Source of the DNA: an uncultured Acidimicrobiia bacterium
GTDB lineage: Bacteria > Acidobacteriota > Terriglobia > Versatilivoradales > Versatilivoraceae
NCBI GenBank assembly: GCA_963752385.1
Contig: CAVVYL010000065.1
Location: 274,571 to 338,570 of the forward strand
DNA length: 64,000 nucleotides
Reading direction: 5' to 3'
Positions within the stretch are counted from its first letter, which is position 1. Each line of letters opens with the position of its first letter. Of the stretch, positions 25,393 through 63,518 are shown in pieces. A program made the position numbers and the translations under genes. The notes under the pieces are model-generated. The model saw nothing but the letters and a program-made list of their open reading frames with translations. It did not search any database and was not told the DNA's origin.

Positions 25393-25892
25393 GAAGTTGC
25401 GTAGGGGGTAGAGAGATGACAGGAAAAAGAAGCGGAGGAGTCGCGGCCCCCACGAAGTCGATTTGGAACCTGTGTGCCCAAAGCTATTGGATCAGAGGAG
25501 TGCCTCCTCTCGCGAGGTCCACGAACACCACGCTGGACCAACACTCGGCGAGCTCAGGCAGCCAGGCAACAGCGCTCGCCAAAGGACCCCAATTCGTCGC
25601 CGTCGCGACTCGAACTAATTCTGAGTCAGCGCTTGAGCACCGACAGAGAATTGTCGTGTGGTCGCTCATCGCATTGCTATGGATCCTTTCGGCGCTGGCT
25701 GTCATGATACTCTTGGAGAAGGCGGCATCTTGAGATCCTGACGCGGCTGAAATCATGCAATTGTCCTCCCGGATTGAAACAGTTGATGGCTTTCCCAGGA
25801 AGTTGATCTCGCCACGCATCACTTTGCACTCGGACAATCAGACGGGCGATCGGCGTATCCTTTCTTTAGGGCGCTGCTTCTGCTCCTGCCTT

Positions 25893-30929: not shown

Positions 30930-31793
30930 TCAACCAGTCTCAGTTCTGAGCTTCTCCTGCAACCGGCCCATAGCTACCAGAATTCCGTACAGTAAGGCCT
31001 GCGGCGGTGGGGGGCAGCCTGGAATATACATATCGACCGGGATCACCTGGTCCACACCCCCCAGTGACGCATAGGTGCAACCAAAGATTCCTCCACTGCA
31101 GCCACAGGCGCCCACAGCCACCACCAAACGCGGCTCTGGTGTGGCGTTGTAGGCCTTCTTGAGTGGGATCTCCATGTTGCGAGTGACCGGACCAGTGACC
31201 AGCAGCATATCCGCATGGCGCGGGGAAGCCACAAATCGGATTCCCAGTCGTTCGGCGTCATAAATGGGGCTGTTGAGGCCCGTGATTTCAACTTCGCAAC
31301 CATTGCAAGAGCCTGCGTCCACTTCGCGAATCTGCAGCGAGCGGCCCAGTACACGGCGGATTCTCTCTCGCAACCGCTCTTTGACCAGCGCTTCCGCCTC
31401 AGAGGTCTGCCGGTCTGTCTGCGCCATCTGGAGGAACTGCTGCTTCCCGCCCGCATCCAGACGGTAGTAGGCCGAGGACACCAGGTGAGAGCGATGTTGG
31501 GCAGCCAGCTCGATTTCTCCCGTGGTGCGGATCGTGCCGTCGGCGGAGGCTTCGGCACAGAGGCCGCAGAAGATGCAACGCCCGTAATCGAGCGTCACCT
31601 TCCGGTTGTCCAGTTTGTCCTCGACGGTGAGTGCGCCTGTGGGACAAACGAGGGCGGCAGGCAGACAATCTGCGGCTTTCTCGAAATCGATCACCGGTCT
31701 ACCGCGCAGGTTGGGGAGAGGCTCCATGGGGCGGGCTGGGTAGTCGGTCGTGACAACGCCTGTCACAAAGGCTCGGTTTAGAATCTTGAACAT
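30930..31793 (-). CDS. fused HycF/HyfH-like 2x[4Fe-4S] ferredoxin + HycG/HyfI/NuoB-like small subunit
   Basis: N-terminal MFKILNRAFVTGVVTTDYPARP...GRCIFCGLCAEAS is HycF-like. The C-terminal GSCNGCEVEI...RFVASPRHADMLLVTGPVT...VAVGACGCSGGIF...YIPGCPPPP holds the NuoB/HycG proximal-cluster cysteines. Confidence 0.8.
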   Translation of the reverse strand: MFKILNRAFVTGVVTTDYPARPMEPLPNLRGRPVIDFEKAADCLPAALVCPTGALTVEDKLDNRKVTLDYGRCIFCGLCAEASADGTIRTTGEIELAAQHRSHLVSSAYYRLDAGGKQQFLQMAQTDRQTSEAEALVKERLRERIRRVLGRSLQIREVDAGSCNGCEVEITGLNSPIYDAERLGIRFVASPRHADMLLVTGPVTRNMEIPLKKAYNATPEPRLVVAVGACGCSGGIFGCTYASLGGVDQVIPVDMYIPGCPPPPQALLYGILVAMGRLQEKLRTETG

Positions 31794-31853
31794 AAGGTTG
31801 GCAGCTCCAGGCAAGAATTTTTCGAGCTAAGCGCTGGTGATCAATCTTCAGAA

Positions 31854-32663
31854 TCATGTGCTGTGTCTGAAGTGAAAGCACAAATGGAAACCCAGAGCGG
31901 GGTTTCTGCGCCCGCCCGGTCGAGGGCGGAAAGCCTCGGTGCTTGCAAGTCTTCGGGCCGTGGAAATTCTCCGAAGGGAAATTAAATCTCCCGGACTTGG
32001 GTTCTTGATCGATAGCTCGAGAAATCCGATGTCCTGGAATTCCTGCACGACCCGCTCGTAACCGCCAGGCAGGTCTCCTCCCATCCCGTGAAACGTCACC
32101 ACGCGCGTGCCCGAGGGAGCTTGCGCCAGCCGATCCTGCGTCATCTTAATGTAGCGGTCATATAGAGAAGGACTCAACTCCACGCGTTCGTCGAGCTTCT
32201 TGTCAGGGTCCAGGTTTTCGTAAAACGGATTGTAAAAGTAGAAGGCGTTGTATCGGCTCCAGTCCAGGTCTCCGGCATTGGCACACAAAAAGCGCACGCG
32301 GGAAATGGCGTACCTATGAGCAAAGCTCCGAGAGAGTTCCGCCAGATGTGGTCTCTGTTCCACACCTGTAAAATTTCCCTGGGTAGCCAGTGCGCCGACC
32401 AGGCAGAATTTGCCTGGGCCTGACCCCACAGCCAGCACCTGAGTTTCGGGCCCGCTGACCAACAACTGGGCGGCGCGGCGAGCCACGTGGACCGGAGTCC
32501 AATGCATGATGGAGAATCGGCGCCAGCACAGGGGGAGAATGCGGTCGAACTGCGCATTCCATACGTGAGCACCGGTCCGCACACGGTCAAAGAGTCGCTG
32601 TATTTCGCATGAGTGTTCTTTCTCGATATCTAACAGTGCCTGTCTGAGAGGAGAAGCAGTCAC
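31854..32663 (-). CDS. class I SAM-dependent methyltransferase-like protein embedded in complex operon
   Basis: Motif I-like QVLAVGSGPGKFCLVGA. It sits between the large-subunit and small-subunit genes, and its function is unknown. Confidence 0.45.
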   Translation of the reverse strand: MTASPLRQALLDIEKEHSCEIQRLFDRVRTGAHVWNAQFDRILPLCWRRFSIMHWTPVHVARRAAQLLVSGPETQVLAVGSGPGKFCLVGALATQGNFTGVEQRPHLAELSRSFAHRYAISRVRFLCANAGDLDWSRYNAFYFYNPFYENLDPDKKLDERVELSPSLYDRYIKMTQDRLAQAPSGTRVVTFHGMGGDLPGGYERVVQEFQDIGFLELSIKNPSPGDLISLRRISTARRLASTEAFRPRPGGRRNPALGFHLCFHFRHST

Positions 32664-32718
32664 TGAATTGCTCTCGCAGTCGCTTTGGGTTGATTGTCGA
32701 TGGCGCTGTGCCAGTGTT

Positions 32719-34379
32719 TCATCGGTCTGTTCCTGAGTAAGAGAGATTGAAGCTTTTGTTGATGACAGGAAAATCCGGAATGATGTTGCCCTGCACGGCT
32801 TCGGGCAGGGCCGGCCAATTGTTCAATGAAGGATCTTTGATCTTGCAGCGAGCCAAACTGCCGTTTTTCCCGGTGAGCACCCAGTGAAGGATTTCGCCGC
32901 GCCAGCCTTCCACGTAACCGAGAGCGCAGCTTTCCGGCGGGATGGGTGGTAGTGCAGTACTCACCGGGCCCGGGACAGCAGGGCCAATGCTTCCAGCGCG
33001 ATGCGGATTGAATCCAGGGCCTCCCCCATACGCACCCGCATCCGGTCAAAGACATCCCCTTTGGAATGGAGGACCACCTTCGGAGGAATTTCGTCGTACG
33101 CCGCGTAGGGAAAGTCCCGGCGAACGTCGAGGTCCACTCCGGACGCGCGGGCGGCAACCCCCACGACGCCCAGGTCCACAGCGGTTTTGTGCGGGAGAAT
33201 GCCGGTCGTCTCCAGCCGGTCGCGAGTAGAGGCGGACGAGAGAATCAGATCCACTAGCGATTCAAACTCCCTTTTGAGGAAGCGTAGCACGCCGGCGGCC
33301 CTCTGAATCTGCTGGGGATCCCAGTCGCGCCGCAAGCCGCCATACACATTCATGCTTCGCAAGAGGCGGTTGCCGGTCAATTCGGCGTTTAAGCACAACA
33401 GTTGTTCCTTCAGGCGCATGGCGTGTGCGTTAGCCACCATGAATCCCACATCCGTGGCAATGGCGCCCACGTCAGCAATGTGGTTGTACAGCCTTTCCAG
33501 TTCGAGCAGCACGGTTCGCATCAACCGGGCCCGACGCGGCACTTCGACGCGCGCCAGGCTCTCGATCGCCTGGCAGAAAGCGGTGGAGTGACTGAAGCTG
33601 GAATCTCCTGAAATGCTTTCGGCAAGGAAGACCGCGTGCGCGAGCGGCTTGTGCTCGAAGAGTTTCTCGGTGGCCTTGTGGGTGTAAAACAACCGGATTT
33701 GCAGATACAGCACCGGCTCGCCGGCAACACTAAAGCGAAAATGACCGGGCTCAATGATGCCGGCATGGATCGGGCCCACGGGCACCTGAAATACGCCTTC
33801 GCCCTCCACTGGGCGGAACAGGTGACGGGGACCTGGCAAGGGCAAGGGCCTGGAGAACAGGTCGAAGTCCTTGCGCAGTGGATGGACCCTGTCCGGGAAA
33901 TCGTCATGGAGCGCCACACGGCGCGGATTGGGGTGGCCCACGGCCGTCAGCCCAAACCAGTCCTGGATTTCCCGCTCCTGCCAGTTGACCGCAGGAATCA
34001 CAGGTGTCAGCGACGGGAATTCAGGATCGGTTGCGGGAACCGGCGTTCGAACGAGAATGAAGCCGCCAGCCCGGTCGCAAGCAAACGTGTACTGGAGATA
34101 GAAGACTTCCTCCTCTTTGCGCCGATCGATGCCAAACACCATGGCCAACCGTATCTTGCGAAGTTTGTAGAGGTGGGCCGCGATGGCAGCAATTGAGTCT
34201 CGCCCGGTTTCCAGATAGACCTCGTTGGGACGCCTACTATAAAGCCGCTGGATCTTGCCGCCAAACGCCATCTGCAGGTCGGCGACAATGGAACCTACCC
34301 CGTTTGCCTCACTCATAAAAACGCTCCCAAATGGAATTGCTTCTCCGCGCCGGATTTCCTGCAGTAATGCCGCGGTCAT
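32719..34379 (-). CDS. NuoC-NuoD/HycE-like fused large subunit lacking Ni-Fe cysteine ligands (frame change near 32960-32985)
   Basis: NuoC part: AMVFGIDRRKEEEVFYLQYTFA...NWQEREIQDWFGL. NuoD/HycE part: VPVGPIHAGIIEPGHFRF. The N-terminal RxCGxC is replaced by ESISGDSSFSHSTA. The C-terminal DPCxSCTDR is replaced by FNLSYSGTDR (in the 32719-32964 ORF, shifted frame). Its ATG overlaps the upstream stop (ATGA at 34376-34379). Confidence 0.8.
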
Positions 34380-35859
34380 CGCGCGCCTCCAACGATCTGG
34401 CCTGCCTGTTGGATCAAGCGCAATAAGGGTGAAGGCAGCCAGAAACCGAAGAGCAGCGTCAACGCAGCAATCAGAAGCATCGGCAGAAGCCGCCACCAGG
34501 ACTCGGCGGTCCGATTCATTCCAATCCGAGGGGCTCCCAGCGCCAGGTGCCCCACGTGGTAAAGAAATCCGGCAAAGATTGTGACCACGCATCCGACAAA
34601 AATGCTGGCTATCCAGAGGCTGCGGCCCTGGACCGAAGCGCTGAGCACCGTCAACTCGCTCTGGAACAGGCCGGCGGGCGGAGTGCCGGTCACCGCCAGG
34701 GTCCCGGCCAGAAACAATACTGCTGTCACTGGCATCAGATGGATCACGCGCCGCCTACTTTGCGGAACATGGCGGTTCCAAACTGCTGCTGGACATTGCC
34801 CGCGCAGAAGAAGAGCAACGGCTTGGTGATGGCGTGATAAAACATGTGCAGCAGCGCGCCAAACGGACCCAGGCTTCCGCCAACCCCGAAGCCAACCAGC
34901 ATGATCCCGGTATGATCAATACTGGAGTAAGCCAGGAGGCGGCGGAAGTTGGTCTGCACCAGGATGAACGGCGTCGCAATCAGCAAGGAACCCAGTCCAA
35001 ACCAAAGCAGCAGGCCGCTGGAAAACTCCGGACCGAGACACCTCGAGGCAAGGATGTGAAAACGCAGGATCCCGTAAAGCGCGCAGTTGAGCACCGCCGC
35101 AGCCAGAATCGCCGCCGAGGGAGCAGGCGCTTCGCTGTAGGAGTCTGGTTTCCAGGTATGCATCGGAGCAATACCGGCTTTGGTTCCATACCCCATGAGA
35201 ATGAAGAGGAAAGCCAGGCGCAAGGCCTTGGGATTGAGCGACGACGCGGCCGAGATAAGCCGAGTCCAGTTCAGCCCTTCGATTGATTCCGTCCCGACGA
35301 CATGGCTGGCGGCGTAATAGGTCAGCAACGTCCCAAACAGCGCCATCGAGATCCCCATGCTGCCGATGATGATGTACTTCCAGGCCGCTTCCAGCGAGGT
35401 CTTCTGGTTGTAGAAGGCAATCAAAAGCACCGAGGCCAGCGTGCTGCCTTCGATGGCCACCCACATAATTCCCAGGTTGTTGGCCAAGGCGACCAGAAAC
35501 AGGGCGAAGACGAAAAGCGGAGTCAGGATGTAGTACTCCTTGAGTCTCCCCAGGGTAATGCTTCCCTTTTCCAAATCCGTCCGGAAATAACCCACTGCGT
35601 AGATGGCACAGACGAAAGACACGAAAGCCGTGAGCACAACCACCAGAGCGCTGAGCGCGTCCGCATACAGAAATCCGTCAAACGCGCTGACTGATTGGAA
35701 CCGTGCCACGTTTTGGACGAGTATCACAGCCAGGGCGAGGTTAATGGCCGCCGAAATGAGGCTGACCCGTTCCATCCACCGGCGCGAACGCAACAACCCG
35801 CAAGCAGCAGCCTCCACCAGTGGCGCCAACAGGAGCAAAACAAGACTCATTCGGATCAA
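34376..35859 (-). CDS. NuoN/NuoM/HyfF-like antiporter-type membrane subunit (frame change near 34745)
   Basis: GIAPMHTWKPDSYSEAPAPSAAILAAAVLNCALYGILRF is the complex-I subunit 2/4/5 family motif. The C-terminal MPVTAVLFLAGTLAVTGTPPAGLF continues in the 34376-34747 ORF. Confidence 0.75.
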
Positions 35860-36521
35860 CCTCGCAATCGTCGTAGTTTACTGGTGTCCATCGACTCGAA
35901 GGTTTCGGCGATGCGATAGGACAGAATGCCCAGGATCATCACACCCACCAACAGATCGAAGAGGATTCCGACTTCCACAATCAGCGGCATTCCATAGGTC
36001 AACGCGATTGCAGCCAGGAAGAGCCCATTTTCGGCCGTCAGCAGCGCCACGACCTGTGAGATGGCCTTCCGCCGGTTCATCATCAGAAAGAACCCAATGA
36101 GGAACAGGGCAGTGGCCACCGCCAGCGAACCGTGACCGTGCTCTTGAGACTGACTGAACGGGTGGGCCACCAGGTAGCCCAGCAGCGTCAAACCGCCGCA
36201 GATCAAGATGGACGCCGGCGTGTTCAGGTAGCCTTCCACTTCCTCCTGCGTGTCAGTCTGGCGGATGATGCGCCGCAACAGCAGCGGCATCACGATGACC
36301 TTCAACAGCAGTGTCAGCCCGGCTGCAATGTAAACGTGATGGGCCTGGTTGACATAGGCCACAGCCGCGGCTAGACAGGCCAGGAAGAACGACTGCAGGC
36401 TGAACAGCGCAATGACCGTGGGTAAGAGCCTCTGGCCCACCAGCAGCATCTGCACCACCAGCATGGCAGCGGCCATCAATGTGATCAGCCGGTGTCCGAG
36501 TTCCACGGAGTCATAGGACAT
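35856..36521 (-). CDS. HyfE-like small membrane subunit
   Basis: MSYDSVELGHRLITLMAAAMLVVQMLLVGQR... About 221 aa and polytopic. It is positioned between the HycD-like and HyfF-like genes as in hyf operons, with ATGA overlaps at both ends. Confidence 0.6.
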   Translation of the reverse strand: MSYDSVELGHRLITLMAAAMLVVQMLLVGQRLLPTVIALFSLQSFFLACLAAAVAYVNQAHHVYIAAGLTLLLKVIVMPLLLRRIIRQTDTQEEVEGYLNTPASILICGGLTLLGYLVAHPFSQSQEHGHGSLAVATALFLIGFFLMMNRRKAISQVVALLTAENGLFLAAIALTYGMPLIVEVGILFDLLVGVMILGILSYRIAETFESMDTSKLRRLRG

Positions 36522-36535: not shown

Positions 36536-37471
36536 TCAGAAGATAAAGGGAGACGCCAAGGCCAGCAGCGCCAAGATGAACGCGACGCTCAGCAGCTCGG
36601 GCACGCGAAACAGACGCAACTTGGCGTTGGAGGTCTCCACTAAAACCACAGCCAAGGCCAGCAGGAGCAGCTTGGCCAGGAATGCGATCAAGCCCGTGGC
36701 TAGAGACGCTGCCGTGAAGGCGCTGCCGACGCCAACCGGAAAGAAGATGTTGACCAGCAGGGTCATGAGCACCAGTTGCTTGAGGGCCACTGCCCACTCG
36801 ATCAGTGCCAGGTAATGCCCTGAATATTCCAGGATCATCGCCTCATGGATCATCGTCAGTTCCAAATGGGTAGCCGGATTGTCCACCGGAATGCGCCCGG
36901 TCTCGGCAATCAGCACGATGAACATGGCCGCGAATGCCAGGATGTGTCCGGGGTTCAGGAACTGTTCTTGATGCTGCAGCGTCGCCTGCACCACCTGGCT
37001 CAAGTTCGTCGACCCGGCCGTAATCGCCACGCTGAAGATGGATAGCATCATGGCCGGCTCGGCAATCGCCGCTACCGTCATTTCTCTGCTGCTGCCCATG
37101 CCACCGAAAGCGCTGGCCGTGTCCAATGCCGCCAGCGCCACAAAGAAACGGCCCAAAGCGAGCAGGTAGATCACTGCAATAACGCCGCCAAAAAGACTCA
37201 GCGGAACGGCAGTGGTAATCATGGGAATCATCAGGCTGACCATCAGGGCGGTCAAAAAGGAAATGTACGGCGTGACCCGGAAGATCCAGGAGGCGTGCCG
37301 GGATACCACCGTTCCTTTCCGCCACAGCTTGAACAGATCGTAGTACGGCTGCAGCAAGCCAGGGCCGCGGCGGTTTTGCAGCAGCGCCTTGCATTTGCGG
37401 ATGAGCCCGTTGACAAGAGGCGCCAGCGCCAGCGCCAGCACCATCTGCAGCAGGATTTGCAAAAGTGTCAT
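36536..37471 (-). CDS. HycD/HyfC/NuoH-like membrane subunit
   Basis: MTLLQILLQMVLALALAPLVNGLIRKCKALLQNRRGPGLLQPYYDLFKLWRKG is the NuoH/HycD signature RRGP..LQPY.D..K. Confidence 0.8.
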   Translation of the reverse strand: MTLLQILLQMVLALALAPLVNGLIRKCKALLQNRRGPGLLQPYYDLFKLWRKGTVVSRHASWIFRVTPYISFLTALMVSLMIPMITTAVPLSLFGGVIAVIYLLALGRFFVALAALDTASAFGGMGSSREMTVAAIAEPAMMLSIFSVAITAGSTNLSQVVQATLQHQEQFLNPGHILAFAAMFIVLIAETGRIPVDNPATHLELTMIHEAMILEYSGHYLALIEWAVALKQLVLMTLLVNIFFPVGVGSAFTAASLATGLIAFLAKLLLLALAVVLVETSNAKLRLFRVPELLSVAFILALLALASPFIF

Positions 37472-39522
37472 CGCGTTCTCTCCCACAGCAACAAGGTGAG
37501 AAGCGTCACAAATATGTAAAACAAGTAGGCCGAGAGGCTGCCGGCCTGCAGCAGACGAATCCGTCGGGAAAGCCGAAGAACCGCACGATTCACGGGCTGG
37601 TAAAGCCACTTTTCGAATGTCGGTTCAATCTGGCTCTGGAAACGAATGGATTGCGTGAAATAGCGCGAGACCGCGAAGTCGGCCTGAACTTGCCGGCGCG
37701 GCCGATAGATGGCTCGGAAGATCATTTGCAGCGGCTTGGAGTAAGCTGTCCCCGTGTACTCCATCTGGGGCGTCAGGCGGTCCAGCCCGCAGTCCCAAGT
37801 CTCATCAACAACCGCTTTCTCTTTTCTGGCCCAAAGCCACCACAACGCTGCTGGAAGCGGCAGCAAAACCAGGAAGAACGAGAGCATGCCCACTGTCGAA
37901 ATCGATCCCTCAGAGGCGCCGAGAGCGTTCACGACCCAACCGTTGCCCGCGATCAGCTGCGGGCTGATCGCAGTTCCCAGCAGTTGCTGTGTGATCGGAT
38001 CCATCAACCGAAGCACACCTGGGGAAACAGTCCCAGAAAAATGCACGCGAGCCCGAAGAGTCCCATGCCGAGCAGCATCGAAGGCGAAGCTTCATGCGCT
38101 CCTTCGGCCTGCGGACTGCGTGGAAGGGAGAGGAAGGTAATTCCCATGGCTTTGACGAAGCAAGCAGCAGCTAGAGCGCCAGTCAGAGCGAGCAATGCCC
38201 CGGCAATGGGAAAGTTCAGGCGGACGAGCCGTTCGGTGGCGCTGAAGCCTTGCAGTAATGCCTGGTAAGTGAGCCACTCGCTGACAAATCCGTTCAGCGG
38301 TGGGAAGCCGCAAAGCGCAATGGCACCCAGGAGAAAGAAAAAAGCCGTTTTCGGCATCCTGCGGATCAGTCCACCCAGCTTTTCGAGGTCCCTGGTGTGA
38401 GCCCCGTTCAATACAGCGCCGGCACCCAGAAACAGCAGCCCTTTGAAGCAAGCGTGATTGAGGGTGTGATAAAGCGCCGCCACAAGCGCCAAGGCAGCCA
38501 GAACCGGCTGTCGGAAAGCGCTGAGCATCAGCGAGGCGCCGATTCCCATCAGGATGATGCCGATGTTCTCCAGGCTGCTGAAAGCCAACAGGCGTTTCAG
38601 GTCTTTCTGAACGAGCGCGTAGAGGACACCCAGTAAAGCAGAGAGCTGAGCCCAGCACAAGCAAAGTGATGCCCCACCAGGCGGGCGGGGTCCCCAGAAA
38701 ATCCAAGAGAACGCGAAGCAGCCCGTAGATGCCGCTCTTGAGCAGCACACCCGACATGAGCGCCGAAACGTTGGAAGGGGCCACGGGGTGAGCTTCGGGC
38801 AGCCAGACGTGCAAGGGAATGATCCCAGCCTTGACGCCGAATCCCACCAGGAAAAGGAAGAACGCGGTATGTCGCTGGAGCGGCGAAAGCCGTGTCCCCA
38901 GGAGATGGAAGTCTTCAAACCGAAAACTTCCAGCTGACTCTGGTAGAGCAGCAGGAAGCCAAGGATCAGACAGCCGGTCCCAATGTGCGACATCACGAAG
39001 AAAAGGACGCCGGCTTGCCGAGTCTTGGGCTCCTCGTGCTCGAAGCTAACCAGGACGAAGGCGGCCAGGGCCATCACTTCCCAGACCACCAGAAGGAAAA
39101 CAGCGTGGCTGGCGCAAAACACCAGCGTGTTGGCCAGCAGCAGCAAGTTAAAGAAGGCGGCCAGGGCGCCCACATTCTTGACCCCGTAATAGTGGGCCGC
39201 ATAGCCGATGGAGTAGATGGAAATGGCCACAGCCGACAACGAAATGAGCAAGACGAAGAACGCGCCCAACGGGTCCAGCTTCACGGCAAACGGAAACAGC
39301 GGCGTTGTCTAAAGGCAAGAGATCGAATGCCGGCGAAGGTCCATCTTGCAAGCATAACCAGGAAGCCGCCATGCCTGCCAAGCCGCCAAGGCAGGAGCCT
39401 AAGAAACCGAGCGTATTCGCCAGCCTTTGCTGGCGCGTGAATGCCAGTGCGAGGGCCGCCCCAATGAAATAGGCAAGCAGGCAGGAACGGAATAGCAAAA
39501 GGACAACCTGTTCAGAAACCAT
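37468..39522 (-). pseudogene. HyfB/NuoL-like antiporter subunit, paralog 1, with at least four frame disruptions
   Basis: Homology to paralog 2 is spread over ORFs 39148-39522, 38004-39284 (frame A), 38092-38847 (frame B, FGVKAGIIPLHVWLPEAHPVAPSNVSALMSGVLLKSGIYG) and 37468-38046 (DETWDCGLDRLTPQMEYTGTAYSKPL...). Confidence 0.65.
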
Positions 39523-39576
39523 TCGGGAGCAACTCTCCTTCAGAGCAATGTGGCAGTCGAAACAGGCAGCCGACGG

Positions 39577-41668
39577 TTAGAACCATGGGAAAACCTCCCG
39601 CAGGTCACTCGTACCGTACTGGATCTTCTCCCAGAGCAGCAGAACGATGAGGGTCAGGAAGATGTAAACCAGGTAGGTGGTGAGGCTCCCGGTTTGAATC
39701 AGGCGTACGCGCCTGGAAAACCGAAGGATGGCGCGATTGACCGGACGATAAATCAACTGCTCAAATGTCGGCTCAATATGGCTCTCAAAGCGAATCGACT
39801 TGGTGAAGTAGCGCGACACGGCGAAGTCGGCCTGAATTCGACGTCGCGGCCGGTAAATCGCCTGAAAGATCATGCGCAAGGGCTTGGAATAAGCCGTCGC
39901 CGTGTACTCCATCTGCGGCGTCAGACGGTCCAGCCCGCAGTCCCAGGTTTCATCCACGCGATGCCGGCCACGCCGCGAGAAACCAGCCACAAGGCCAGAG
40001 GCAAAGGCAGCAGCGCCAAGAAACAGCGCCGCCATCCCTGGTGTCGAAATCGCCCCCCGCTCGACCGCTAGAGATGTCACCATCCAGCCATTCCCAGCGA
40101 TCAGTTGCGGGCTAATCTCTTGCTCCAGTAACTCCTGTGTAACTGGATCCAAAAGAGGAAGGAACGCCATGGGAAACACGCCGAGTACCACGCAAGCCAG
40201 TCCGAGAGTCGCCATACCGAAAAGCATCGAGCGCGGCGCCTCGTGCGCTTTTTCTGCCTGCGGGCTTCGTGGCAGAGCAAGAAAAGTGATCCCCACTGCC
40301 TTGACGAAACAGGCCGCGGCCAAAGCGCCTGTCAGAGCCAACAGGGCACCGCCAATCGGGAAGATCAGCCGCACGGCGATCTGGGTGGCGCCAAAGCCCT
40401 GCAGAAGCGCCTGGTAGGTCAACCACTCGCTGACGAAGCCGTTTAAGGGAGGAAGACCCGAGATAGCCACAGCCCCCAAAAGGAAGAAAAACGCTGTCCA
40501 GGGAAGACGGCGAATCAACCCGCCCAGCTCTTCCATGTTTCGAGTCCCAGTGGCGTGGAGCACTGCCCCGGCGCCCAAGAACAGCAGGCCTTTGAAGCAG
40601 GCATGATTCAACGTGTGGTAGAGGCCCGCTACCAGCGCCAGCGCGGCGAGGGCCGGCTGATGGAATGAAATGAAGAGTAACGAGGCGCCTAAGCCCATCA
40701 GGATGATCCCGATATTCTCGATGCTGTGAAACGCCAGCAAGCGCTTGAGATCGTGCTCCACCAGGGCATAGAGCACGCCCAGCAGAGCGGATATCGATCC
40801 GGCAGCGAGAATCAGAAGACCCCAGAAGACGGGAGGCGGAGTCAAGAAGTCAAAGAAAACCCGAACCATCCCATAGATCCCAGTTTTGATGAGCACGCCA
40901 GACATGAAGGCGGAAACATTGGTGGGAGCCACCGGATGCGCCGCTGGCAGCCAGATATGCAACGGGATGACTCCAGCCTTGATGCCGAATCCCACGAAGA
41001 AGAGAAAGAAGGCCGCCGTGCGTCGCGAGAGCGAAAGCTGGGCTCCGATGTTGTGAAGATCTTCAAAGCGGAAACTGCCGTTGACCTGAAAGAGCAGCAG
41101 AAAGCCCAAGATCAAACAGCCAACGCCAATGTGCGACATGACGAAATACAACATCGCCGGCTCGCCGTGCTTCCGGGTGTTCATGCTCAAAAACTACCAG
41201 CACAAAAGCAAAGAGGGCCATCAACTCCCAGGCAATGAGAAGGAAGACCGCATTATCAGCACAGAAGATAAGCGTCGTGGCGAGCAGCAGAAGATTGAAG
41301 AAGCCCGCCAGACTGCCCACATTCTTGACACCGTAGTACTGGGTAACGTAACCGTAGGAATAAATGGATATGGCCAGCCCCAGCAGCGAAACCACCAGAG
41401 TGAAGAACGCCGCCAAGGGATCGAGCTGAATTGAAAAGCGGACCAGCGGCGTCGCAGCTGGCAAGAGTGTGAAGGCCGGCGAAGTCCCCTGACTGAGGCC
41501 AGTGAAGGATGCCCAACAGCCGGCCAGCCCTCCGATCCACGCCCCGAAAAAGCCAGCCAGGCTGGCCATCCTGGGAAAGCGAGTCAGAGCAAAGGAGGCC
41601 ACGGCGCCGACAGCGTATGCCCACAAGGAGATTGGAAGCAGGTGAACCGCGAATTGCTCCAGTCCCAT
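39577..41668 (-). CDS. HyfB/NuoL-like antiporter subunit, paralog 2 (one frame change near 41150-41190)
   Basis: N-terminal ORF 41063-41668 (MGLEQFAVHLLPISLWAYAVG...) and the 537-aa ORF 39577-41190 (FGIKAGVIPLHIWLPAAHPVAPTNVSAFMSGVLIKTGIYG...). Together they are about 697 aa. Confidence 0.75.
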
Positions 41669-41686
41669 CAGCTTTGAGGTCTCCTT

Positions 41687-41998
41687 TTAACTTGATCGCC
41701 TTCGCGTGGAGAACTGCGAAATTAGATACTGCAGTTTTCCCTCGCGGAATTCCGTCATGGTGATCTTGATCACCTGCGAGAGGGGCTTTCCTGGGTAACG
41801 AGTTGCTAACTGTAAGGTGCGCTGGGAAAGAACACGGCACAAGACAAACGGATTGACTTTGAAGTGAATACTCCCCCTTGGCAGAACGACTCGAACCGGT
41901 GAGGGTTCTCTCAATGTCTCCGGGTGTGGTGTCTCGTTGCGAGCGTTACCTTGGTCAACGTAGTCTTCAATACTTAGATTGATATGTGTATCTCCCAT
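41687..41998 (-). CDS. hypothetical small protein at head of complex operon
   Basis: 103-aa ORF directly upstream of paralog 2, with no recognisable motif. Confidence 0.25.
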   Translation of the reverse strand: MGDTHINLSIEDYVDQGNARNETPHPETLREPSPVRVVLPRGSIHFKVNPFVLCRVLSQRTLQLATRYPGKPLSQVIKITMTEFREGKLQYLISQFSTRRRSS

Positions 41999-42189
41999 TC
42001 AGCGGGGCATCCCTTCAGTCGACCCAGACACTTTGGCGCGCGCTTCCTCCAGGCTCAGTCCGTGGTTACGCATGTAATGCAGAACTCCCTTCAGCCGGTA
42101 GAACTCGCGCATTCCCAGGTTCTTAAACAGATGCTAATTCCCCAATTTCCAGTGAGCTAATATGCGAACATGCAAAGATATGCACATAG

Positions 42190-42225
42190 ATAAGTCAAAA
42201 AAATCCGGATCATTGAGATCCGGAA
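42190..42225 (-). terminator. intrinsic terminator downstream of arsR-like gene
   Basis: On the minus strand: GGTTCCGGATCtcaatGATCCGGAtttttttgac. It is a perfect 8-bp stem followed by a T7 run, 14 bp after the stop at 42239. Confidence 0.6.
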
Positions 42226-42238
42226 CCAGACGCCCAGC

Positions 42239-42592
42239 CTAGTGCCGCCCCGCCTTGGCAGGACGTTCCGAATTGATTGCTTCCAGCATGCCGCGTACCC
42301 CAATCAGATGGTTGTTAAAGATTTGCCGGGCCACGTCCAACAGCTTGAAGAGAGTGGGATCACTGACGGAATAGTAAACGTTGGCCCCCTCTTTACGCGC
42401 CACAATAATGTTCTTATTCCGCAACACGGCCAGCTGCTGGGAGGCATTCGGGGGCTCTACCGAGAACCTCTGGCTGATCTCATTCACGGTCAGTTCGCCT
42501 TCCCGCAAAGCATCCAAGATGGATATTCGGAGGGGGTGTGCCAGCGCTTTAAAGAACTCCGCCTTGAAGTTACTCAGCTGTTGCCTTGTCAT
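42239..42592 (-). CDS. ArsR/SmtB-family transcriptional regulator
   Basis: FKALAHPLRISILDALREGELTVNEISQRFSVEPPNASQQLAVLRNKNIIVARKEGANVYYSV is the ArsR winged HTH. An alternative start lies at 42610. Confidence 0.75.
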   Translation of the reverse strand: MTRQQLSNFKAEFFKALAHPLRISILDALREGELTVNEISQRFSVEPPNASQQLAVLRNKNIIVARKEGANVYYSVSDPTLFKLLDVARQIFNNHLIGVRGMLEAINSERPAKAGRH

Positions 42593-45797: not shown

Positions 45798-46241
45798 ATG
45801 TTAAGGCGCATTAATTCCGTCTTCTTATTCGTCGTTCTGGCAGGCGGCACCGCTGCAACCGCTAGCACTCTTTGCGCTCGTTCTGCAGGAGAGAACGCCG
45901 CCGGTTCGCCTCAGGACCGTTGCAAGATGGCTGGAACGAAGGCGGCCACTCTGATGAGTTGCGGCGAGCGAGCGCCTGTCCCGCATTCTGAACAAACGAG
46001 CAAGAAAGCCTCGGGCTGCTGCCAAATGTCAGCACCGGTGCCTGATCAGCCGCGTTCTGCTCTTCCCGACAACTCTTTCGGAGAGTTCAGGCAAGAAACT
46101 CGGGCTCAACTGTTGGATTCATCAGAGCCGGTTTCCCCATCAGCTCTGGGAGCTTTGCGTCATCGATGGGCGTTTTTGACGATCACCTTCTGGCCGGATC
46201 GTTCTGATATCTATCTCCTCGGGTCTACCTTCCGTATTTAA
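45798..46241 (+). CDS. hypothetical secreted protein
   Basis: Signal-peptide-like N-terminus MLRRINSVFLFVVLAGGTAATAS. Cys-containing, with no recognisable domain. Confidence 0.35.
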   Translation: MLRRINSVFLFVVLAGGTAATASTLCARSAGENAAGSPQDRCKMAGTKAATLMSCGERAPVPHSEQTSKKASGCCQMSAPVPDQPRSALPDNSFGEFRQETRAQLLDSSEPVSPSALGALRHRWAFLTITFWPDRSDIYLLGSTFRI

Positions 46242-46404
46242 GTCTGCCCAAAGATTCTTTGCAGTTACCCAGGACCGCTCGAAGTGCGGCTCTCTGAGGG
46301 CATTCCCCATTTACGAGTTTTCTCGTGTCCTCGGGAGCGCCACGGGGCCAAACGACTGAAGTGTTTTTAGCTCAATCAAGTCGTGAACTGAAAGGAGACA
46401 GCAA

Positions 46405-46809
46405 ATGTACCCCTTCCGAAAAATGAACAAATCATTGGTCCGTCTTGCCATCGTCGCTGTGATGGGACTGGTTGTTGCCCTCGCCAGCCCATTCACCGGG
46501 GAGGCAAAGGAAAAGACCTCCAAGCGTGCCCTGAAGGAAATGGTCGCCGGGGCCAAGACAGCCGCAGATCACAAGGCTATTGCAGATTACTACTACGCAG
46601 AAGCCGCCAAGGCGCGTGCCAAAGCCGTCGAGCATGACCAGATGGCGAGTTGGTATCGAACGGCAGGTGAGGTCGGAACGAAGAAGATTCCTTATGCGGC
46701 CGGATCTATCGACCATTGCGAGCGGCTCGTGAAGAACTACCAGTCCACAGCGGACAACCTGACGGCCTTAGCAAAAGAGCATGAAGCCATGGCAGCCAAG
46801 AGCAAGTAG
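46405..46809 (+). CDS. hypothetical secreted protein
   Basis: Signal peptide MNKSLVRLAIVAVMGLVVALASP. It is Ala/Lys-rich and followed by the hairpin CCCGGGGGActtagTCCCTCGGG at 46819-46841. Confidence 0.4.
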   Translation: MYPFRKMNKSLVRLAIVAVMGLVVALASPFTGEAKEKTSKRALKEMVAGAKTAADHKAIADYYYAEAAKARAKAVEHDQMASWYRTAGEVGTKKIPYAAGSIDHCERLVKNYQSTADNLTALAKEHEAMAAKSK

Positions 46810-46899
46810 CTGTGATCAATCCCGGGGGACTTAGTCCCTCGGGATTTCACTGAGCCTGATGAAATTCTCAGATTCGACAATAGGACGGATGTCACTCCT

Positions 46900-47222
46900 A
46901 TGAAGCGATTCATTGCCTGGTTGCTGTCTCTACGAACTGGCTGAGTCTCGCACCAGCTGATGCCCAGGCCAATGCCGACTTTCAATAGCAGGGCGTCGTA
47001 ACCCTCAACTCGCTTGTCAGGGAGTTACTTGCCAAGAATCCGGAGTTATGGGCCGTGAGAAGCGCTACGAAGCGGCTCTGACTCGGCCTCACCAAGACAG
47101 CGCTTTCCAGACCCACGCGCTTCACCCAACGTGTCGTGACGAATGCTGAGAGTATGGGTGAACTTCCGGGGGGGCGCGGCCCTTCACCCAGCGACGCGAT
47201 GAGAGCTCATTCCTTTAGGTAA
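46900..47222 (+). pseudogene. TolC-family outer-membrane efflux protein N-terminal remnant
   Basis: MKRFIAWLLSLRTG* then, in other frames, LSLAPADAQANADFQ* and QGVVTLNSLVRELLAKNPELWAVRSATKRL* (the lTLeeAv..AL.nNPeL TolC signature). It is broken by stops and frameshifts. Confidence 0.5.
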
Positions 47223-47555
47223 GATGTGTCTTGTGAAAGGCACATTCTAGTTCCTAGTCGCGCTTTGAGGTAGAAGACATCACTGTTTTCCCGGCTCAAG
47301 CCGGAACACAAAGAAAGCCGGTCTCCCTCTCAGTTAGGATGAAGTGGCTTGCCTGCGTTGCTCGGACCGTCAGGCCAGTGAAATGCCAAAGGCTCAACGG
47401 GATGCCTTCTCGAATCGCCGCTCCACCGATACCTGGAGTGGAAATGACTCAGATTTCGTGACACAGTCATCGAGTGCGAGGAAGCCAACAGGGGCGGCTC
47501 CGATGGGCGATTCGTTCGCCCAACAGCTTTCGGAGCTTAAGATGGAGGCTCTGGC

Positions 47556-48443
47556 TCACCGTTTGGCAGGCGGCACCTCTCCGCGTAGCCGATAGTAGCT
47601 TTCGTCAGCACGCGGGCCCACATTCGCCTCGCATGGCTGGCACTCCCTTCCTTCGGCCTTCAGAAGGGTTTTGTAGACCTCAGATGGAGTGTACTCGCTA
47701 TAATCCTCAGGTACGGTGAAGTACTCCGGTGGCGGATCTCCTGGGTTGATTTGCTCTATTTCGATGGCGGTAGCACCAGTACTGACTCCCGGTGTATTCA
47801 CCTTGAGAGTCCGCTTCAGTGCAACACAACCTAATTCCGGGGCCCGCCATTCCTCCTCAAGGACGGAGTCACCGCCTTCCATGCCCTCGTATACATAATG
47901 CTCGGCTGAATAGCCCAACAGGAAGGAGTCCGTTTGCTCACTCCTCTTGAATCTGGCCTCGCCTGCACAATTTTGCCGAGGCGAGTGACTTCCACGTATG
48001 TTTTTTGCGTCCGCATCGCTGATCGGTACCGTGACGGTACCCTTCAAAAAAGGAAACACGCTGACGCGACGTTGCGAAACCAAGTCAACGATCTCGCGGG
48101 TTTCAAACACCCCTCCAGGAACGGTTTCTGGCTGGCCCGCCCATTCGGTTCGGCGTATCTTCGCTATTGATCCGTTTCCCCGGACAGCAAGGACTTGAGT
48201 GGCCAGCCTCGCCTGGCCGCCACCTTCCAGGCGTTCACTGAAAACGAGTGTGTATGGTGATATTTCTGAAACCTCTGCGTAAACCCCGGCTAACTTTGGC
48301 ACGAATTTTACCGCCAAAACCCCCAAAAGGAGTGCGGCGAGACTCAACGCACCGATGCTTAGTAAGCCTAGGTTTCCAACACATTTGATAACAGGCATAA
48401 TGTGTATTGGTTCACCGGAAATGAGACTTTTTGAGGGGTTCAA
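47556..48443 (-). CDS. hypothetical membrane-anchored protein
   Basis: 295 aa with the N-terminal TM segment LGLLSIGALSLAALLLGVLAV and no recognised domain. Confidence 0.4.
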   Translation of the reverse strand: MNPSKSLISGEPIHIMPVIKCVGNLGLLSIGALSLAALLLGVLAVKFVPKLAGVYAEVSEISPYTLVFSERLEGGGQARLATQVLAVRGNGSIAKIRRTEWAGQPETVPGGVFETREIVDLVSQRRVSVFPFLKGTVTVPISDADAKNIRGSHSPRQNCAGEARFKRSEQTDSFLLGYSAEHYVYEGMEGGDSVLEEEWRAPELGCVALKRTLKVNTPGVSTGATAIEIEQINPGDPPPEYFTVPEDYSEYTPSEVYKTLLKAEGRECQPCEANVGPRADESYYRLRGEVPPAKR

Positions 48444-48498
48444 GAAGTAGCGGATCTGAAGACTTTGGTTGTCGTAAACTCAATTTCCAGAGAGAAAG

Positions 48499-50012
48499 TC
48501 ATCGAATTGCTGGTGCCGGCATCGCTGTCAGTATCTCGCGTCCGATTGTTGCGACTTGAAGGTCAATCTTCTTTGCCAAACTCTGGACCTCTTTCAAATA
48601 GGCGGGATCGTCCTCGCTGCCATTCTCGTGACCAACAAGAGCCGCCACGAAATACTCCCCAGGAACGATTCCGTTTAGCGAAAACCGACCTTCATGATCT
48701 GTTTGTCCCGTAATAATGAATCGCGAGTTCGGTACCCAATTCTTGCGAGCGATGGAGTAAACAAGGACAGTCGCACCTTTCACCATCTCATTATTTTCCT
48801 CAGTTTTCACCGCCCCCGTCAGCTGCGCTGCTGGCGAAGAGATCACTATCTCAGTGCCGGTCATTTCCAACTTCAACGGTCGCACTTGCCACTTGTGCTC
48901 TGCCTTCTTTGAACACTCCAGCTATGATCCGGTAGGAGCCCGGAAACAGGTTAATGAGTTTGAAATCTCCGTTCAAATCAGGACGGTAGACAGTTGAAGG
49001 ACCAATGTGGCCTGCAGTGGATCTGACAGGGCAAACTAATGCGTTAAACGCTGGCTTGCCCTCCGGTGCTACGACCCTACCACTGACTGAATAACCCATT
49101 GACTCGACCAAGGTTATGTCCATCCCCCTGTTACACTGGACGCGCCCACCTCAATCTTCGTCGAGTCCTGGAAATCGAGAACTCCTGGATAAAACGTTGA
49201 AGGATAGGAAGATTGTGTAGCCGAGCCAGGAATTCTGAAGGAGAGATAGGTAGCGCTCAGGTAGTAAGTCCCTGGGAGCACATCGAAGAGACGGAACTGT
49301 CCAAGGTCGTCTGTCCTAGCAACCGCCGTTGGCTCAAGTTTCCCACTCGCGTAACGACTCAGTCCTACATTGACGTTGCATAATGGTCCCCCGTGGTCAA
49401 ACACACGACCTCCACGACGCCACCACGCACAAGCTGGATGTCAATCCTGTCAATTGTCTCACCAGGTCGCACTACGACGGGACTCCCGGTGGGAAGTTTC
49501 GCTGAATCGGAGGCTACATTGAGGGGATCTTTTTGGCCGTATAGCTGGACCAGATAACCGTTTCGGTATGCCATCACAGAGTATTTGCCCGGCACGACCT
49601 GCCTAAACTCGTACTCTCCAGCGTCATTTGTCTTTGTGGACAGCGGCTCGATCTCGAGTCGCGATTCCAACGGCCTCAAGGCAACGGTAGTCTTGTTCAA
49701 GACTGCACCGGAAACTGCATCTACTATCTTTCCCTTGAGAGTTCCATGTTTTTTCTGGCCCGTAACAGTCTCTTCCAGTGCCTGCGCTAAATTCTGAGAT
49801 TGAGCGAGACCAGGGCTACGGCCAATGGAGCTACAGATGAACAGCAGAACGCTTGACCAGGTTAGCTTGATGACGGAAATCCTGTGATTAGAGATACGAG
49901 ATCGCATGGCTAGATTCCGGAACCGCCTGGAACCAGGTAATGCCCTCGTTAGACTCTCTTGCACGGCGTGCAACACTTTTGGAATACTACCATCCAAAGG
50001 CAAGTTCCACAA
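48499..50012 (-). CDS. carboxypeptidase regulatory-like domain protein (about four tandem CarboxypepD_reg domains; split by three frame changes)
   Basis: It spans four consecutive minus ORFs (49365-50012, 49114-49404, 48851-49123, 48499-48885). Each carries G.V.D...G..L....V.L....TD..G.F.F..L.PG.Y-type motifs, for example GKIVDAVSGAVLNKTTVAL...TNDAGEYEFRQVVPGKY. Confidence 0.6.
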
Positions 50013-52483: not shown

Positions 52484-52734
52484 GAACACAATAGTCAAGA
52501 CACGCAGGGTGGGTCACGCGTCTCGACGGCAGCAGCAACGGTACGTTGCTTTCATCCATGCGCTGGAGCGGCATGAGAAGGGAAGAAATGAATGGGGCCA
52601 GCAAGCAGTTATGGAGGATCCTGGAGTACCCGATTAGAGCTCAATTCTTGTCTTTCTTCACTGGAATAGATAGCTGACGGTGGGCCAAAGGCTGTGAAGA
52701 TCGAATCAGCCTCCGTCGGTATCAATGGCAGGAG

Positions 52735-52947: not shown

Positions 52948-53053
52948 GCATTCTGTCTAAGAGTATCCGTTGACAAGGCCAATCCTGAGAGAGAACCGTC
53001 CGTTGGAAGAAGAGACACCTCTTCGATAGGGGCGTCCGAGAAAGGAAACAACA

Positions 53054-61939: not shown

Positions 61940-63518
61940 TTACGGCAGAGCCGGCTGGTGCGTCGCCCACCACTCCCGCGCCCGTTCCTGGGTCCAGGCG
62001 CTCGCGCCTTCCACCTCGGCCAGCCGAAGCGACAGCTCTCTGGCGGACTGCGGTCGATTCGCGGGGTCCTTGGCCAGACAGGATAGCACGAGGTCATCGA
62101 GTGCCCTGGGGATCGGCAGGTCCGTCCGGGCTGATGGAGGCGTGGGCGGAGTCTGGGCGTGATGCAGGAGCAGCCCCATGGGGGTCTCGGCGGTGAACAC
62201 GAGTTGCCCGGTCAGGAGCCAGTAGGCGACACAGCCGGTCGCATAAATGTCGGCGCGCCCGTCCAAATCGGTCTCCCATCGCCTGCTCGGGCGCAATGAA
62301 CGCCGGCGTACCATGGACCGCGTTCTCCCGCGTGTGCACCGGGCTCGTGTCCGCGGGGTCGCGGACTGCCCCCACAATTCCGAAATCCAGCACCTTCACG
62401 AAGTCGTACTCCTCGCCGTACCGGCAGAGGAAGATGTTCGCGGGTTTGATGTCGCGATGAACCAGGCCGCAGGACTGGGCCTCGGACAGCGAGTGACAGA
62501 CCTGGCGAAGCAGGTAGATGGCCCGTTCGGGCGGGGTCGGCCCGAAGCGCCGAAGCAGCGAGTCGGCATCGAGGCCATCGAGCAGCTCCATGACGTAGTA
62601 GAAGGCGCCGTCGGCGGCGATCCCGAAATCGAAGAGCTCCACGGTATGGGGTGAGCGGAGACGGGCGATCACCTGCGCTTCGCGCTCGAATCGGCGGGCC
62701 GCCTCCTCCGACACTCCGGCACGCGCATTCCCGGCGAAGGAGGGCCGAATCAGCTTGATGGCGGCAGGCCTTGCCAGCATGCGATGCCGGGCTCGCCAGA
62801 CCTCGCCCATCCCTCCCTCGCCGAGCTTCTCCTCCAGGCGGTAGCTCCCCAGCTCGCGCGCGCGCTTGACCTCGGTGCCCAGATGGTAGACCACGCGGGC
62901 TCCGACATAGGCCATGCCCACCACGAGGAGATATGGGAACACGAGACCGAAGAAGAACTGTGCCGGATCTATCCGGAACGAAGTGGCGCCGGACGCCATC
63001 ACGAGCCCGATGACGACGGCGACCGAGCTGACCGATGCCAGGGCGGCCACCACCGCGCGGCGCGGGGAGGTCGGCACGACGACCGTGAACAGCACGACCC
63101 AGACGGCGACCCAGGAGAGCCCCAAGCAGCCCCGGTGCGTCTCGAGGTGCATGGGATCGGCGAACTCGGCCGCGGCGATGGCGTAGCTGCTGACGATCTC
63201 GAATGCCAGACCGAGGTTCATCGCCGTGGGAAGCGGAACGCGCGGGCTCCGGATCACCGCCGCGACGAGCACCGCCACCACGATCCCGATGACGCCGGGA
63301 CCCCACTGCACGAAGCTGCCGAGGAATCGGGCCCGATCGCCCGGGAACAGCAGCGCCGGAAAGATTCCGGCCATGAAGAAGACGAACGCGTACAGCAGGG
63401 CGAGGACGCGGAGGCGTCCGGCAGACTGGCGGAGCAGATCGACCGGGAATCCCGACGAGATCCCTCGAGCGGTCGGGTCACCCGCGTCGGGGGGCATGAG
63501 AGTGACGTGCTCGTGCAT
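61940..63518 (-). CDS. Ser/Thr protein kinase with N-terminal polytopic membrane domain (frame change near 62270-62300)
   Basis: Kinase motifs GEGGMGEVWRA, AIK, HRDIKPANIFL, DFGI and GTPAFIAPEQ. The C-lobe DLDGRADIYATGCVAYWLLTG... continues in ORF 61940-62377. Confidence 0.75.

Follow-up and report, generated by a model that had tools for sequence, protein, structure and literature searches.

A tandem pair of HyfB-type genes in a predicted Ehr-type operon of an uncultured acidobacterium, with frame breaks that are probably assembly errors

The E. coli Hyf (hydrogenase-4) and Hyc (formate hydrogenlyase-1; PDB 7Z0S/7Z0T) complexes have a subunit set and gene order homologous to those of the operon analysed here; the subunits compared were HyfB/HycC, HyfC/HycD, HyfE, HyfF, HyfG/HycE and HyfI/HycG. 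A second group of related systems, the energy-converting hydrogenase-related (Ehr) complexes, combines Mrp/Nuo-type antiporter-like subunits with homologues of the group-4 large and small subunits in which the Ni/Fe ligands are missing (PMC6349859). The P. furiosus Mbx/Mbs complexes (PDB 6U8Y) are among them. The NuoL, NuoM and NuoN subunits of complex I belong to the same fold family (Pfam PF00361) as the antiporter-like subunits described below.

The window, a stretch of 64,000 nucleotides from contig CAVVYL010000065.1, carries an operon in the order HyfB-HyfB'-HyfC-HyfE-HyfF-large subunit-methyltransferase-small subunit, beginning with two adjoining HyfB/HycC-type antiporter-like genes, both on the minus strand (Table 1). 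The start of HyfC overlaps the stop of the downstream HyfB-type copy (ATGA). In hyfF, positions 1-225 and 240-292 of the PF00361 profile fall in two separate ORFs, and the HyfE-like subunit scores below the gathering threshold of PF00420 (24.6 vs. 26.1 bits). The methyltransferase gene is read in frame -3 and then -1 against its L001 and L089 orthologs, and Pfam Methyltransf_31 is matched by orthologs of this gene. Orthologs of the small subunit match PF01058 and, faintly, PF00037, and its sequence contains the Cys motifs SCNGCE, GACGCSGG and PGCPP, candidates for a NuoB-type [4Fe-4S] cluster site. Neither formate dehydrogenase nor hyp genes were seen beside the operon. A malic-enzyme gene, which precedes the operon in the related loci L001 and L002 and is apparently outside the described Ehr/Mbx modules, is missing in the window.

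Table 1. Operon genes, upstream regulator and positions of frame breaks in the window
Feature	Position	Strand	Remarks
ArsR/HTH_5-type regulator upstream of operon	42239..42586	-	87% identity to HTH_5 protein of L002
Upstream HyfB/HycC-type paralog	41668..39577	-	~696 aa once corrected; as read, ORFs 41668..41063 and 41190..39577
+1 insertion, upstream copy	41154	-	GCCGGCG[A]TG; gap in L001 and L002 (3-way alignment)
Compensating pair, upstream copy	+1 near 40019-40023, -1 at 39983	-	window-specific vs. L001, L002, L089
Downstream HyfB/HycC-type paralog	39522..37468	-	~683 aa once corrected; as read, four ORF pieces
+1 insertion, downstream copy	39310	-	CCTTTA[G]ACAACG; absent in L001, L002, L088, L089
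+2 insertion, downstream copy	38940..38941	-	CTACC[AG]AGTCAGC; absent in L001, L002, L088, L089
+1 insertion, downstream copy	38644	-	CAGCT[C]TCTGC (ctctct tract); absent in L001, L002, L088, L089
-1 deletion, downstream copy	38017..38018	-	CAGGT[-]GTGC; orthologs CAGGTAGTGC or CAGGTACTGC; gap in window only
HyfC/NuoH-like membrane subunit, intact	36536..37471	-	311 aa; PF00146; 93.6% to L002 ortholog, one frame
HyfE-like (NuoK-type) membrane subunit, intact	35856..36521	-	221 aa; 91% identity, one frame
HyfF/NuoN-like antiporter subunit	34376..35859	-	split by -1 at ~34750 (GGCGGC[-]GCGTG); tblastn frame switch, alignment
NuoC/NuoD-fusion large-subunit homologue (HycE-like)	32719..34316	-	532 aa corrected; -1 at ~32973; tblastn frame switch
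SAM-methyltransferase-like gene	31844..32722	-	+1 at ~32698, -2 at ~31964; between large and small subunits
NuoB/HycG-like small subunit, N-terminal ferredoxin-like domain, intact	30930..31793	-	87% identity, one frame

None of the four [NiFe] Cys ligands is present in the large subunit, either in the window or in its close relative L002. In the alignment to E. coli HycE (7Z0S_E; E=1e-82 for the L002 subunit), VCGICGFAH is replaced by SISGDSSFSH and DPCYSCTDR by NLSYSGTDR, and the corrected subunit of the window has the same motifs. The N-terminal RxCGxCxxxH and C-terminal DPCxxCxxR/H ligand motifs being absent, a Hyf/Hyc-type group 4 [NiFe]-hydrogenase is ruled out. The ligand-free large subunit, accompanied by antiporter-like and NuoH-like membrane subunits, identifies the predicted product of the operon as an Ehr-type complex, which has these features in common with Mbx/Mbs. 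The operon resembles Hyf in having three antiporter-like subunits (HyfB, D and F in E. coli), but a second HyfB-type gene stands where the HyfD-type gene would be. It further differs from Hyf and Hyc in the methyltransferase gene placed between the large and small subunits and in the missing [NiFe] cysteines. The tandem HyfB-type pair and the embedded methyltransferase are apparently outside the described Ehr/Mbx modules.

A sequence-only reading of the window had proposed two adjacent HyfB-like paralogs sharing long motifs, and indeed both genes were recovered in the positions expected and each copy has the motifs it quoted, with 70.2% nucleotide identity between the copies over 1873 nt (BLASTN) and 68% protein identity after frame correction. 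The upstream copy was recognised by PF00662 and PF00361 and by a tblastn frame switch. Pieces of both copies match PF00361 (E 3.5e-50, 1.1e-30 and 6.6e-14) and together cover profile positions 29-277. PF00662 is above threshold in the upstream copy only (E 5e-7, 29.9 bits); the match of the downstream copy falls short (E 0.0024, 18.2 vs. 24.5 bits). Once corrected, however, the downstream copy aligns with E. coli HycC (7Z0S chain C) over residues 16-505 (E=2.2e-79).

Both copies contain putative ion-path motifs (WEVMAL/WELMAL, GFGVKAG/GFGIKAG and CFKGLLFLGAG), and each keeps the charged residues within them: Glu in WEVMAL, and Lys both in GFGVKAGIIPLH and in CFKGLLFLGAG. We take these to be the TM5 Glu, TM7 Lys and TM12 Lys of the ion path, their roles being those assigned in complex I, so that the charged residues of NuoL, NuoM and NuoN would be retained here. 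Both copies also have a HyfB-specific C-terminal extension (DETWDCGLDRLTPQMEYT...) in place of the NuoL lateral helix, and belong to a smaller complex than NuoL/M/N. The Pfam matches, the similarity to HycC and the charged residues together mark both genes as encoding predicted HyfB/HycC-type antiporter-like subunits.

The pair is also present in four related loci. In L002, both copies are intact and in the same order (696 and 683 aa). In L001, L088 and L089, an intact gene of full length is seen for the downstream copy only; the upstream copy of L001 is itself split and L088 and L089 hold only its 3′ end. Many database proteins of each type reach full length, at 85-94% identity; those of the upstream type have 696 aa. 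The corrected downstream protein is 93% identical to intact orthologs of 683/694 aa, and several lineages have its type intact, with identities of 79-93%. In an NJ tree, the clade of the upstream type is sister to that of the downstream type. A recent tandem duplication is ruled out by the degree of divergence (70% nucleotide and 68% amino-acid identity), by the presence of both copies in L001, L002, L088 and L089 and by their separate clades. In a scan of genome contigs, a single HyfB gene was the common state in distant relatives (at most 68%) among the matches listed. The comparison of orthologous loci suggested by the earlier reading thus gives a single HyfB as the general state in distant relatives and the tandem pair as ancestral for this acidobacterial clade. 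As judged from these sequences, the duplication is old and the pair is conserved in related uncultured soil Acidobacteriota.

Indels were placed by 3-way and 5-way nucleotide alignment with orthologous loci, the 5-way alignment of the downstream copy comprising the window, L001, L002, L088 and L089. The four frame changes that had been estimated for this copy near 39290, 38870, 38660 and 38020 were all confirmed, at 39310, 38941, 38644 and 38017 respectively. The window alone carries them; no frame-breaking indel was seen in the downstream copy of the four orthologous loci. With 4 breaks in 2 kb, the downstream copy is the most broken gene in the window. The upstream copy, described as nearly intact with one change near 41170, indeed has a single stop-creating frameshift, at 41154, but also hides the compensating pair, which leaves about 13 codons out of frame without a stop. 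These codons are scrambled, such that the LLPLPLxLW of the orthologs reads AAAFASGLVAG in the window.

After frame correction, no stop codon was found in 681 and 693 codons, and dN/dS was 0.09-0.13. Signs of relaxed selection in the downstream copy (raised dN/dS, nonsense codons, an excess of non-synonymous changes) were sought and not found: its terminal dN/dS is ~0.08 and, beside the 4 indels, its window-specific substitutions comprise 25 synonymous and 6 non-synonymous changes and 0 stops. Terminal-branch dN was lower in the window than in L001 (0.011 vs. 0.018). Judged by its substitutions, the frame-corrected downstream copy appears to be under strong purifying selection.

Frame breaks are not peculiar to the downstream copy, which corrects the emphasis of the earlier reading: besides the upstream copy, hyfF and the genes for the large subunit and the methyltransferase are affected, making 11 indels in ~11 kb and in 5 of the 8 operon genes. 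Outside the operon, 3-4 indels were detected in 53 kb, a count based on intact long ORFs and the few splits detected, giving a density ~10x higher in the operon (~1 per kb) than outside it. At least three unrelated genes are hit there, for a Ser/Thr kinase, an SBBP-repeat protein and a CAAX protease (the last by eye). A test for internal repeats was negative for a second SBBP frame switch near 55.56 kb, and Pfam gave no evidence of split genes at 4511-5378, 6459-7567, 19835-20973 and 23741-24731. Insertions account for 7 of the 11 operon indels in the alignment. None of the 11 lies in a run of at least 4 bases, which rules out homopolymer slippage as their cause. Nor did they significantly favour blocks 95-97% identical to L001, as read cross-mapping might produce (4 of 11 in ~21% of the sequence).

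The most likely explanation is that the frame breaks are indel errors in the consensus: single-base mistakes, dense here by chance, in a metagenome assembly that is error-prone and was probably built from long reads. As in the residual errors of such assemblies, isolated indels of 1-2 bases split conserved genes, they differ between the window and L001 and they come without accompanying substitutions or stops. The close relative L001 also has frameshifts in this operon, as well as in the flanking feoB and cytochrome b genes, and they differ from those of the window. The contig names of L001 are Flye-style. Nanopore-only assemblies from such soils have received a single round of Medaka polishing (PMC12313526). 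What sets these indels apart from such residual errors is their local density, much higher than elsewhere in the window, and their clustering in one functional unit, as real operon decay would give, speaks against assembly errors; for random errors to cluster in this way, something further would be required, for instance a local drop in coverage or reads from co-occurring relatives. If assembly error is nonetheless the cause, the organism most likely has both HyfB genes intact, as a functionally retained ancient pair. The operon headed by the pair would encode a membrane-bound Ehr-type complex without a [NiFe] site, a relative of both complex I and the group-4 hydrogenases. Together with HyfF, the pair would provide three antiporter-like ion-translocating modules, a role that homology suggests and that would parallel HyfB/D/F of E. 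coli Hyf and the NuoL/M/N subunits of complex I.

The strongest rival is that the frameshifts are real and that the whole Ehr-type operon, rather than one paralog, was very recently inactivated and is beginning to decay. This would account for the concentration of the 11 breaks in 5 of 8 genes, between flanking NtrC and histidine-kinase ORFs that are uninterrupted (NtrC matches the 460-aa homologues of L087 and L089). It would also fit the breaks of L001 in the same operon, the missing malic-enzyme gene and the 2.7-kb ATPase gene, which shows no indel when aligned with a JGI contig of 95.5% identity. Contigs sharing the ATPase gene have little synteny with the window beyond it. However, there is no nonsense codon and dN is not raised. 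If indels arise at about one tenth of the rate of substitutions, as mutation-accumulation studies suggest, 4 indels in the downstream copy would imply at least about 30 neutral substitutions, most of them non-synonymous, against the 6 non-synonymous and 25 synonymous changes seen beside them. The indels are mostly insertions outside homopolymers, unlike those of natural slippage, unrelated genes elsewhere are also broken and no larger deletions were seen. We therefore consider inactivation of the operon unlikely.

The earlier reading had left the choice between a decaying duplicate and a local hotspot of assembly indels; the second best fits the evidence, short of proof, and the first finds little room. 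Decay of just the downstream copy, as a redundant duplicate, would agree with its having the most breaks, but the duplication is old (68% amino-acid identity), the downstream type is intact in several lineages, terminal dN/dS is low, no stop has accumulated and breaks also affect the upstream copy and three further genes of the operon, making this very improbable. Decoding of the frame changes by programmed ribosomal frameshifting or transcriptional slippage, to which only their presence points, is scarcely credible, since the 11 sites have differing contexts and both + and - shifts, no slippery heptamer or long homopolymer is found and the orthologs all encode these proteins without any change of frame.

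These data serve mainly as a caution. What looks like a pseudogene is most likely an artefact of assembly, which makes the window unfit for inferring gene decay or loss of function, and frames have to be corrected in the gene calls of the 30.9-41.7 kb region. Were the indels genuine, which we doubt, a conserved Ehr-type respiratory module would have been switched off very recently here and may have been independently switched off in L001; the complex would then be dispensable and lost in parallel in soil populations. The biological point is more modest. Automatic hydrogenase annotation would be misleading for this locus, with its missing nickel-iron site, tandem HyfB pair and conserved embedded methyltransferase: what annotation pipelines label "hydrogenase-4" in this clade of uncultured soil Acidobacteriota is a predicted Ehr-type complex.

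The two adjacent HyfB-like genes proposed by the sequence-only reading were borne out by the ORF listing, three-frame translation, BLASTN (70.2% identity between the copies over 1873 nt) and Pfam, all ORF pieces of both copies matching PF00361 or PF00662 and representing consecutive segments of a single antiporter-like subunit. After frame correction the two proteins share 68% identity. Both copies keep the Glu of WEVMAL, the Lys of GFGVKAGIIPLH and the Lys of CFKGLLFLGAG, as would be expected of functional antiporter-like modules. As read, the downstream copy changes frame four times and the upstream copy once, and the approximate break positions first proposed differ from ours by no more than a few tens of bases. 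The count of one frame change in the upstream copy stands for the frames as read, but alignments add a hidden pair of indels (40019/39983), between which out-of-frame residues replace a conserved LLPLPLxLW stretch. This pair was previously overlooked because it introduces no stop.

We located the indels by comparison with orthologous loci in publicly available assemblies: L001 (ENA ERZ25039555, contig_22644), L002 (ENA ERZ25039503, a 1.76-Mb contig), and L088 and L089, both from JGI metagenomes. Throughout the operon the window is collinear with all four, and its nucleotide identity to them is 82-90%. Only window-specific indels with a length that is not a multiple of three were counted, in three-way and five-way MAFFT alignments. 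There are 11 in ~11 kb, hitting five of the eight operon genes; no break was seen in hyfC, hyfE or the small-subunit gene. The four indels of the downstream copy were found in none of the four orthologs in the five-way alignment, and this gene is free of frame-breaking indels in every ortholog.

Genes with frame breaks in the window and in the orthologous locus L001 (window coordinates unless marked)
Feature	Coordinates	Strand	Frame-breaking indels	Basis
Upstream HyfB-like gene	41668..39577	-	41154 (+1); 40019 (+1); 39983 (-1)	ORF listing, three-frame translation; MAFFT alignments (indels)
Downstream HyfB-like gene	39522..37468	-	39310 (+1); 38941 (+2); 38644 (+1); 38017 (-1)	ORF listing, three-frame translation; MAFFT alignments (indels)
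hyfF		-	34750 (-1)	MAFFT alignments
Large-subunit gene	32719-34316	-	32973 (-1)	MAFFT alignments
SAM-methyltransferase-like gene	31844-32722; L001 16931-17809; L002 16804-17766; L089 8051-8929	- (window)	32698 (+1); 31964 (-2)	
Ser/Thr kinase gene, split	62094..63518 + 61940..62377 (61940-63518)	-		Two overlapping ORFs; Pfam
DUF7948/SBBP beta-propeller-repeat protein, large	53358-56925	+		Three overlapping ORFs
CAAX (Rce1-like) protease gene, apparent frame switch	12878-13736	+		Pfam on C-terminal part
L001 regions with their own frameshifts (upstream HyfB, small subunit, feoB, cytochrome b)	L001 7699-9955, 2486-3398, 3430-5569, 17684-18720			

Codon alignments that took their reading frame from the intact L002 genes gave the downstream copy a dN/dS of 0.13 (against L001) and 0.086 (against L002), with no stops in 681 codons; its terminal-branch dN was 0.011 in the window vs. 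0.018 in L001. In such alignments, the remaining operon genes and the upstream copy behaved like the downstream copy. In the five-way alignment, 25 synonymous and 6 non-synonymous changes of the downstream copy occur in the window only; none of them is a nonsense change, and they stand against 4 indels. Neutral change would produce about 3 non-synonymous changes per synonymous change and many more substitutions per indel; in bacterial mutation-accumulation work, indels amount to about one tenth of substitutions. Given the low dN/dS, the lack of stops, the 25:6 private changes and the kept key residues, there is thus no sign of relaxed constraint in the downstream copy.

Used as a query, the frame-corrected downstream protein matched an intact group of 683-694 aa at 79-93% identity and a separate class of ~696 aa at 68-70%. 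The latter is the upstream type, sharing 85-94% identity with the corrected upstream copy, and the two types form sister clades in an NJ tree. L002 has both copies intact, in the order malic enzyme, HyfB (696), HyfB' (683), HyfC, HyfE, HyfF, large subunit, methyltransferase and small subunit. The 3' end of the upstream copy is also followed by the downstream copy in L001, L088 and L089, and in two further pairs of matched database proteins (P0004 with P0020, P0009 with P0030) both members come from contigs of equal length, which suggests that they too are neighbours. A single HyfB precedes HyfC among the 80 more distant loci listed, mostly from Verrucomicrobiota and Acidobacteriaceae. On the question of whether one or two HyfB genes is ancestral, these comparisons indicate one as the general state and the pair as an old duplication kept in this acidobacterial clade. 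A recent duplication is ruled out by the relatives' pairs, the divergence and the sister clades. A Bryobacterales MAG locus (L064, 9761-14185) also has two tandem HyfB-type genes, which fall outside the groups of the window pair in the NJ tree and look like an independent duplication or acquisition.

Frame breaks also occur in unrelated genes. The Pkinase profile of the Ser/Thr kinase is divided between its two ORFs (profile positions 1-168 and 175-254). In the SBBP-repeat protein the repeats resume in another frame at ~54830-54845, and a second switch, suspected near 55.56 kb, was not confirmed. The N-terminal membrane part and the Pfam-matched part of the CAAX protease lie in different frames, the switch appearing, by eye, near 13.13 kb. 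Breaks are therefore window-wide, yet denser in the operon, at roughly ten times the density of the rest of the window. Most long genes outside the operon are uninterrupted, and comparison with a 95.5%-identical JGI contig shows no frame-breaking indel in a 2.7-kb P-type ATPase gene. The ~46000-56000 region is lower in G+C (51-55%), has few long ORFs and scores weakly as coding sequence under a codon model of the window itself; its DNA may be foreign or heavily disrupted. In the comparison of 24735-25724 with L083 1-976, from a JGI contig that is 91-95% identical, synteny stops at 24735, inside a CBS-domain gene that is reduced to a 5' fragment and adjoins an FGE-sulfatase-like gene; 24735 is therefore a rearrangement breakpoint.

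Of the explanations offered by the sequence-only reading, a local hotspot of assembly indels is best supported. We consider it probable that consensus errors cause the frame breaks; those of the operon would be consensus indel errors of the assembly rather than gene decay. This is argued by indels that are window-specific and come without matching substitutions or stops, by the broken unrelated genes, by a predominance of insertions (7/11) with none of the 11 sites in a homopolymer of at least 4 bases, and by the different set of frameshifts in the close relative L001. There, the upstream copy has its own +1 indels at L001 8383 and 8583, the small-subunit gene has a +1/+1 pair, and the feoB and cytochrome b genes are split; L002 is free of such breaks. 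The contig names of L001 and L002 are Flye-style, and many of the related matches listed are Microflora Danica nanopore MAGs; nanopore-only assemblies from such soils were polished with one round of Medaka (PMC12313526), and the window may derive from comparable data. Cross-mapping of relatives' reads onto L001-like blocks, considered as a technical cause of the clustering, found no support, just 4 of the 11 indels lying inside them, which is not significant. These blocks (38265-39464 and 32129-32709) are 95-97% identical to L001, the remaining operon being 77-93% identical (mostly 82-90%), and dS differs from gene to gene (0.13 to 0.93). Such a mosaic points to lineages having recombined, or to a mixed consensus. 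A 154-nt insertion separates the two HyfB genes of L001.

A genuine, very recent inactivation of the operon is unlikely. The clustering of breaks in one functional unit would be expected of a decaying operon, and the malic-enzyme gene upstream in L001 and L002 is missing from the window, but neither matching substitutions nor stops accompany the indels, and the damage extends to unrelated genes. In the window, only ~570 bp (41669-42238) lie between an ArsR-type regulator and the first HyfB gene; the malic-enzyme gene occupies this interval in L001 (6377-7681) and L002 (6412-7839). Programmed frameshifting and decay of one paralog alone are effectively excluded, the proposed decaying duplicate being unsupported in an old, conserved pair with dN/dS of 0.086-0.13, no stops and other operon genes broken.

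The large subunit is a NuoC/NuoD fusion that, in its L002 version, aligns to E. coli HycE (7Z0S_E, E=1e-82), with SISGDSSFSH for VCGICGFAH and NLSYSGTDR for DPCYSCTDR. All four [NiFe] cysteine ligands are missing, in L002 and the frame-corrected window gene alike; the defining feature of a group-4 hydrogenase is thus lacking, and a 'hydrogenase-4' identity for the operon was rejected. The complex fits the published definition of Ehr, the energy-converting hydrogenase-related complex (PMC6349859), and the operon is thus of the Ehr type, not a hydrogenase. The SAM-methyltransferase-like gene is an unusual operon member, which all close relatives keep between the genes for the large and small subunits. 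Like E. coli Hyf, the complex has three antiporter-like modules, but through HyfB, HyfB' and HyfF instead of HyfB, HyfD and HyfF. In some single-HyfB relatives, hyfE and hyfF lie ~2.2 kb apart, room for an additional gene. A HyfD-like position may be taken by the second HyfB-type subunit. Judged by homology, the complex likely acts by redox-driven ion translocation, which would be fed by a cytoplasmic donor. The HyfB pair consists of ordinary conserved paralogs in an already recognised, moderately interesting kind of complex.
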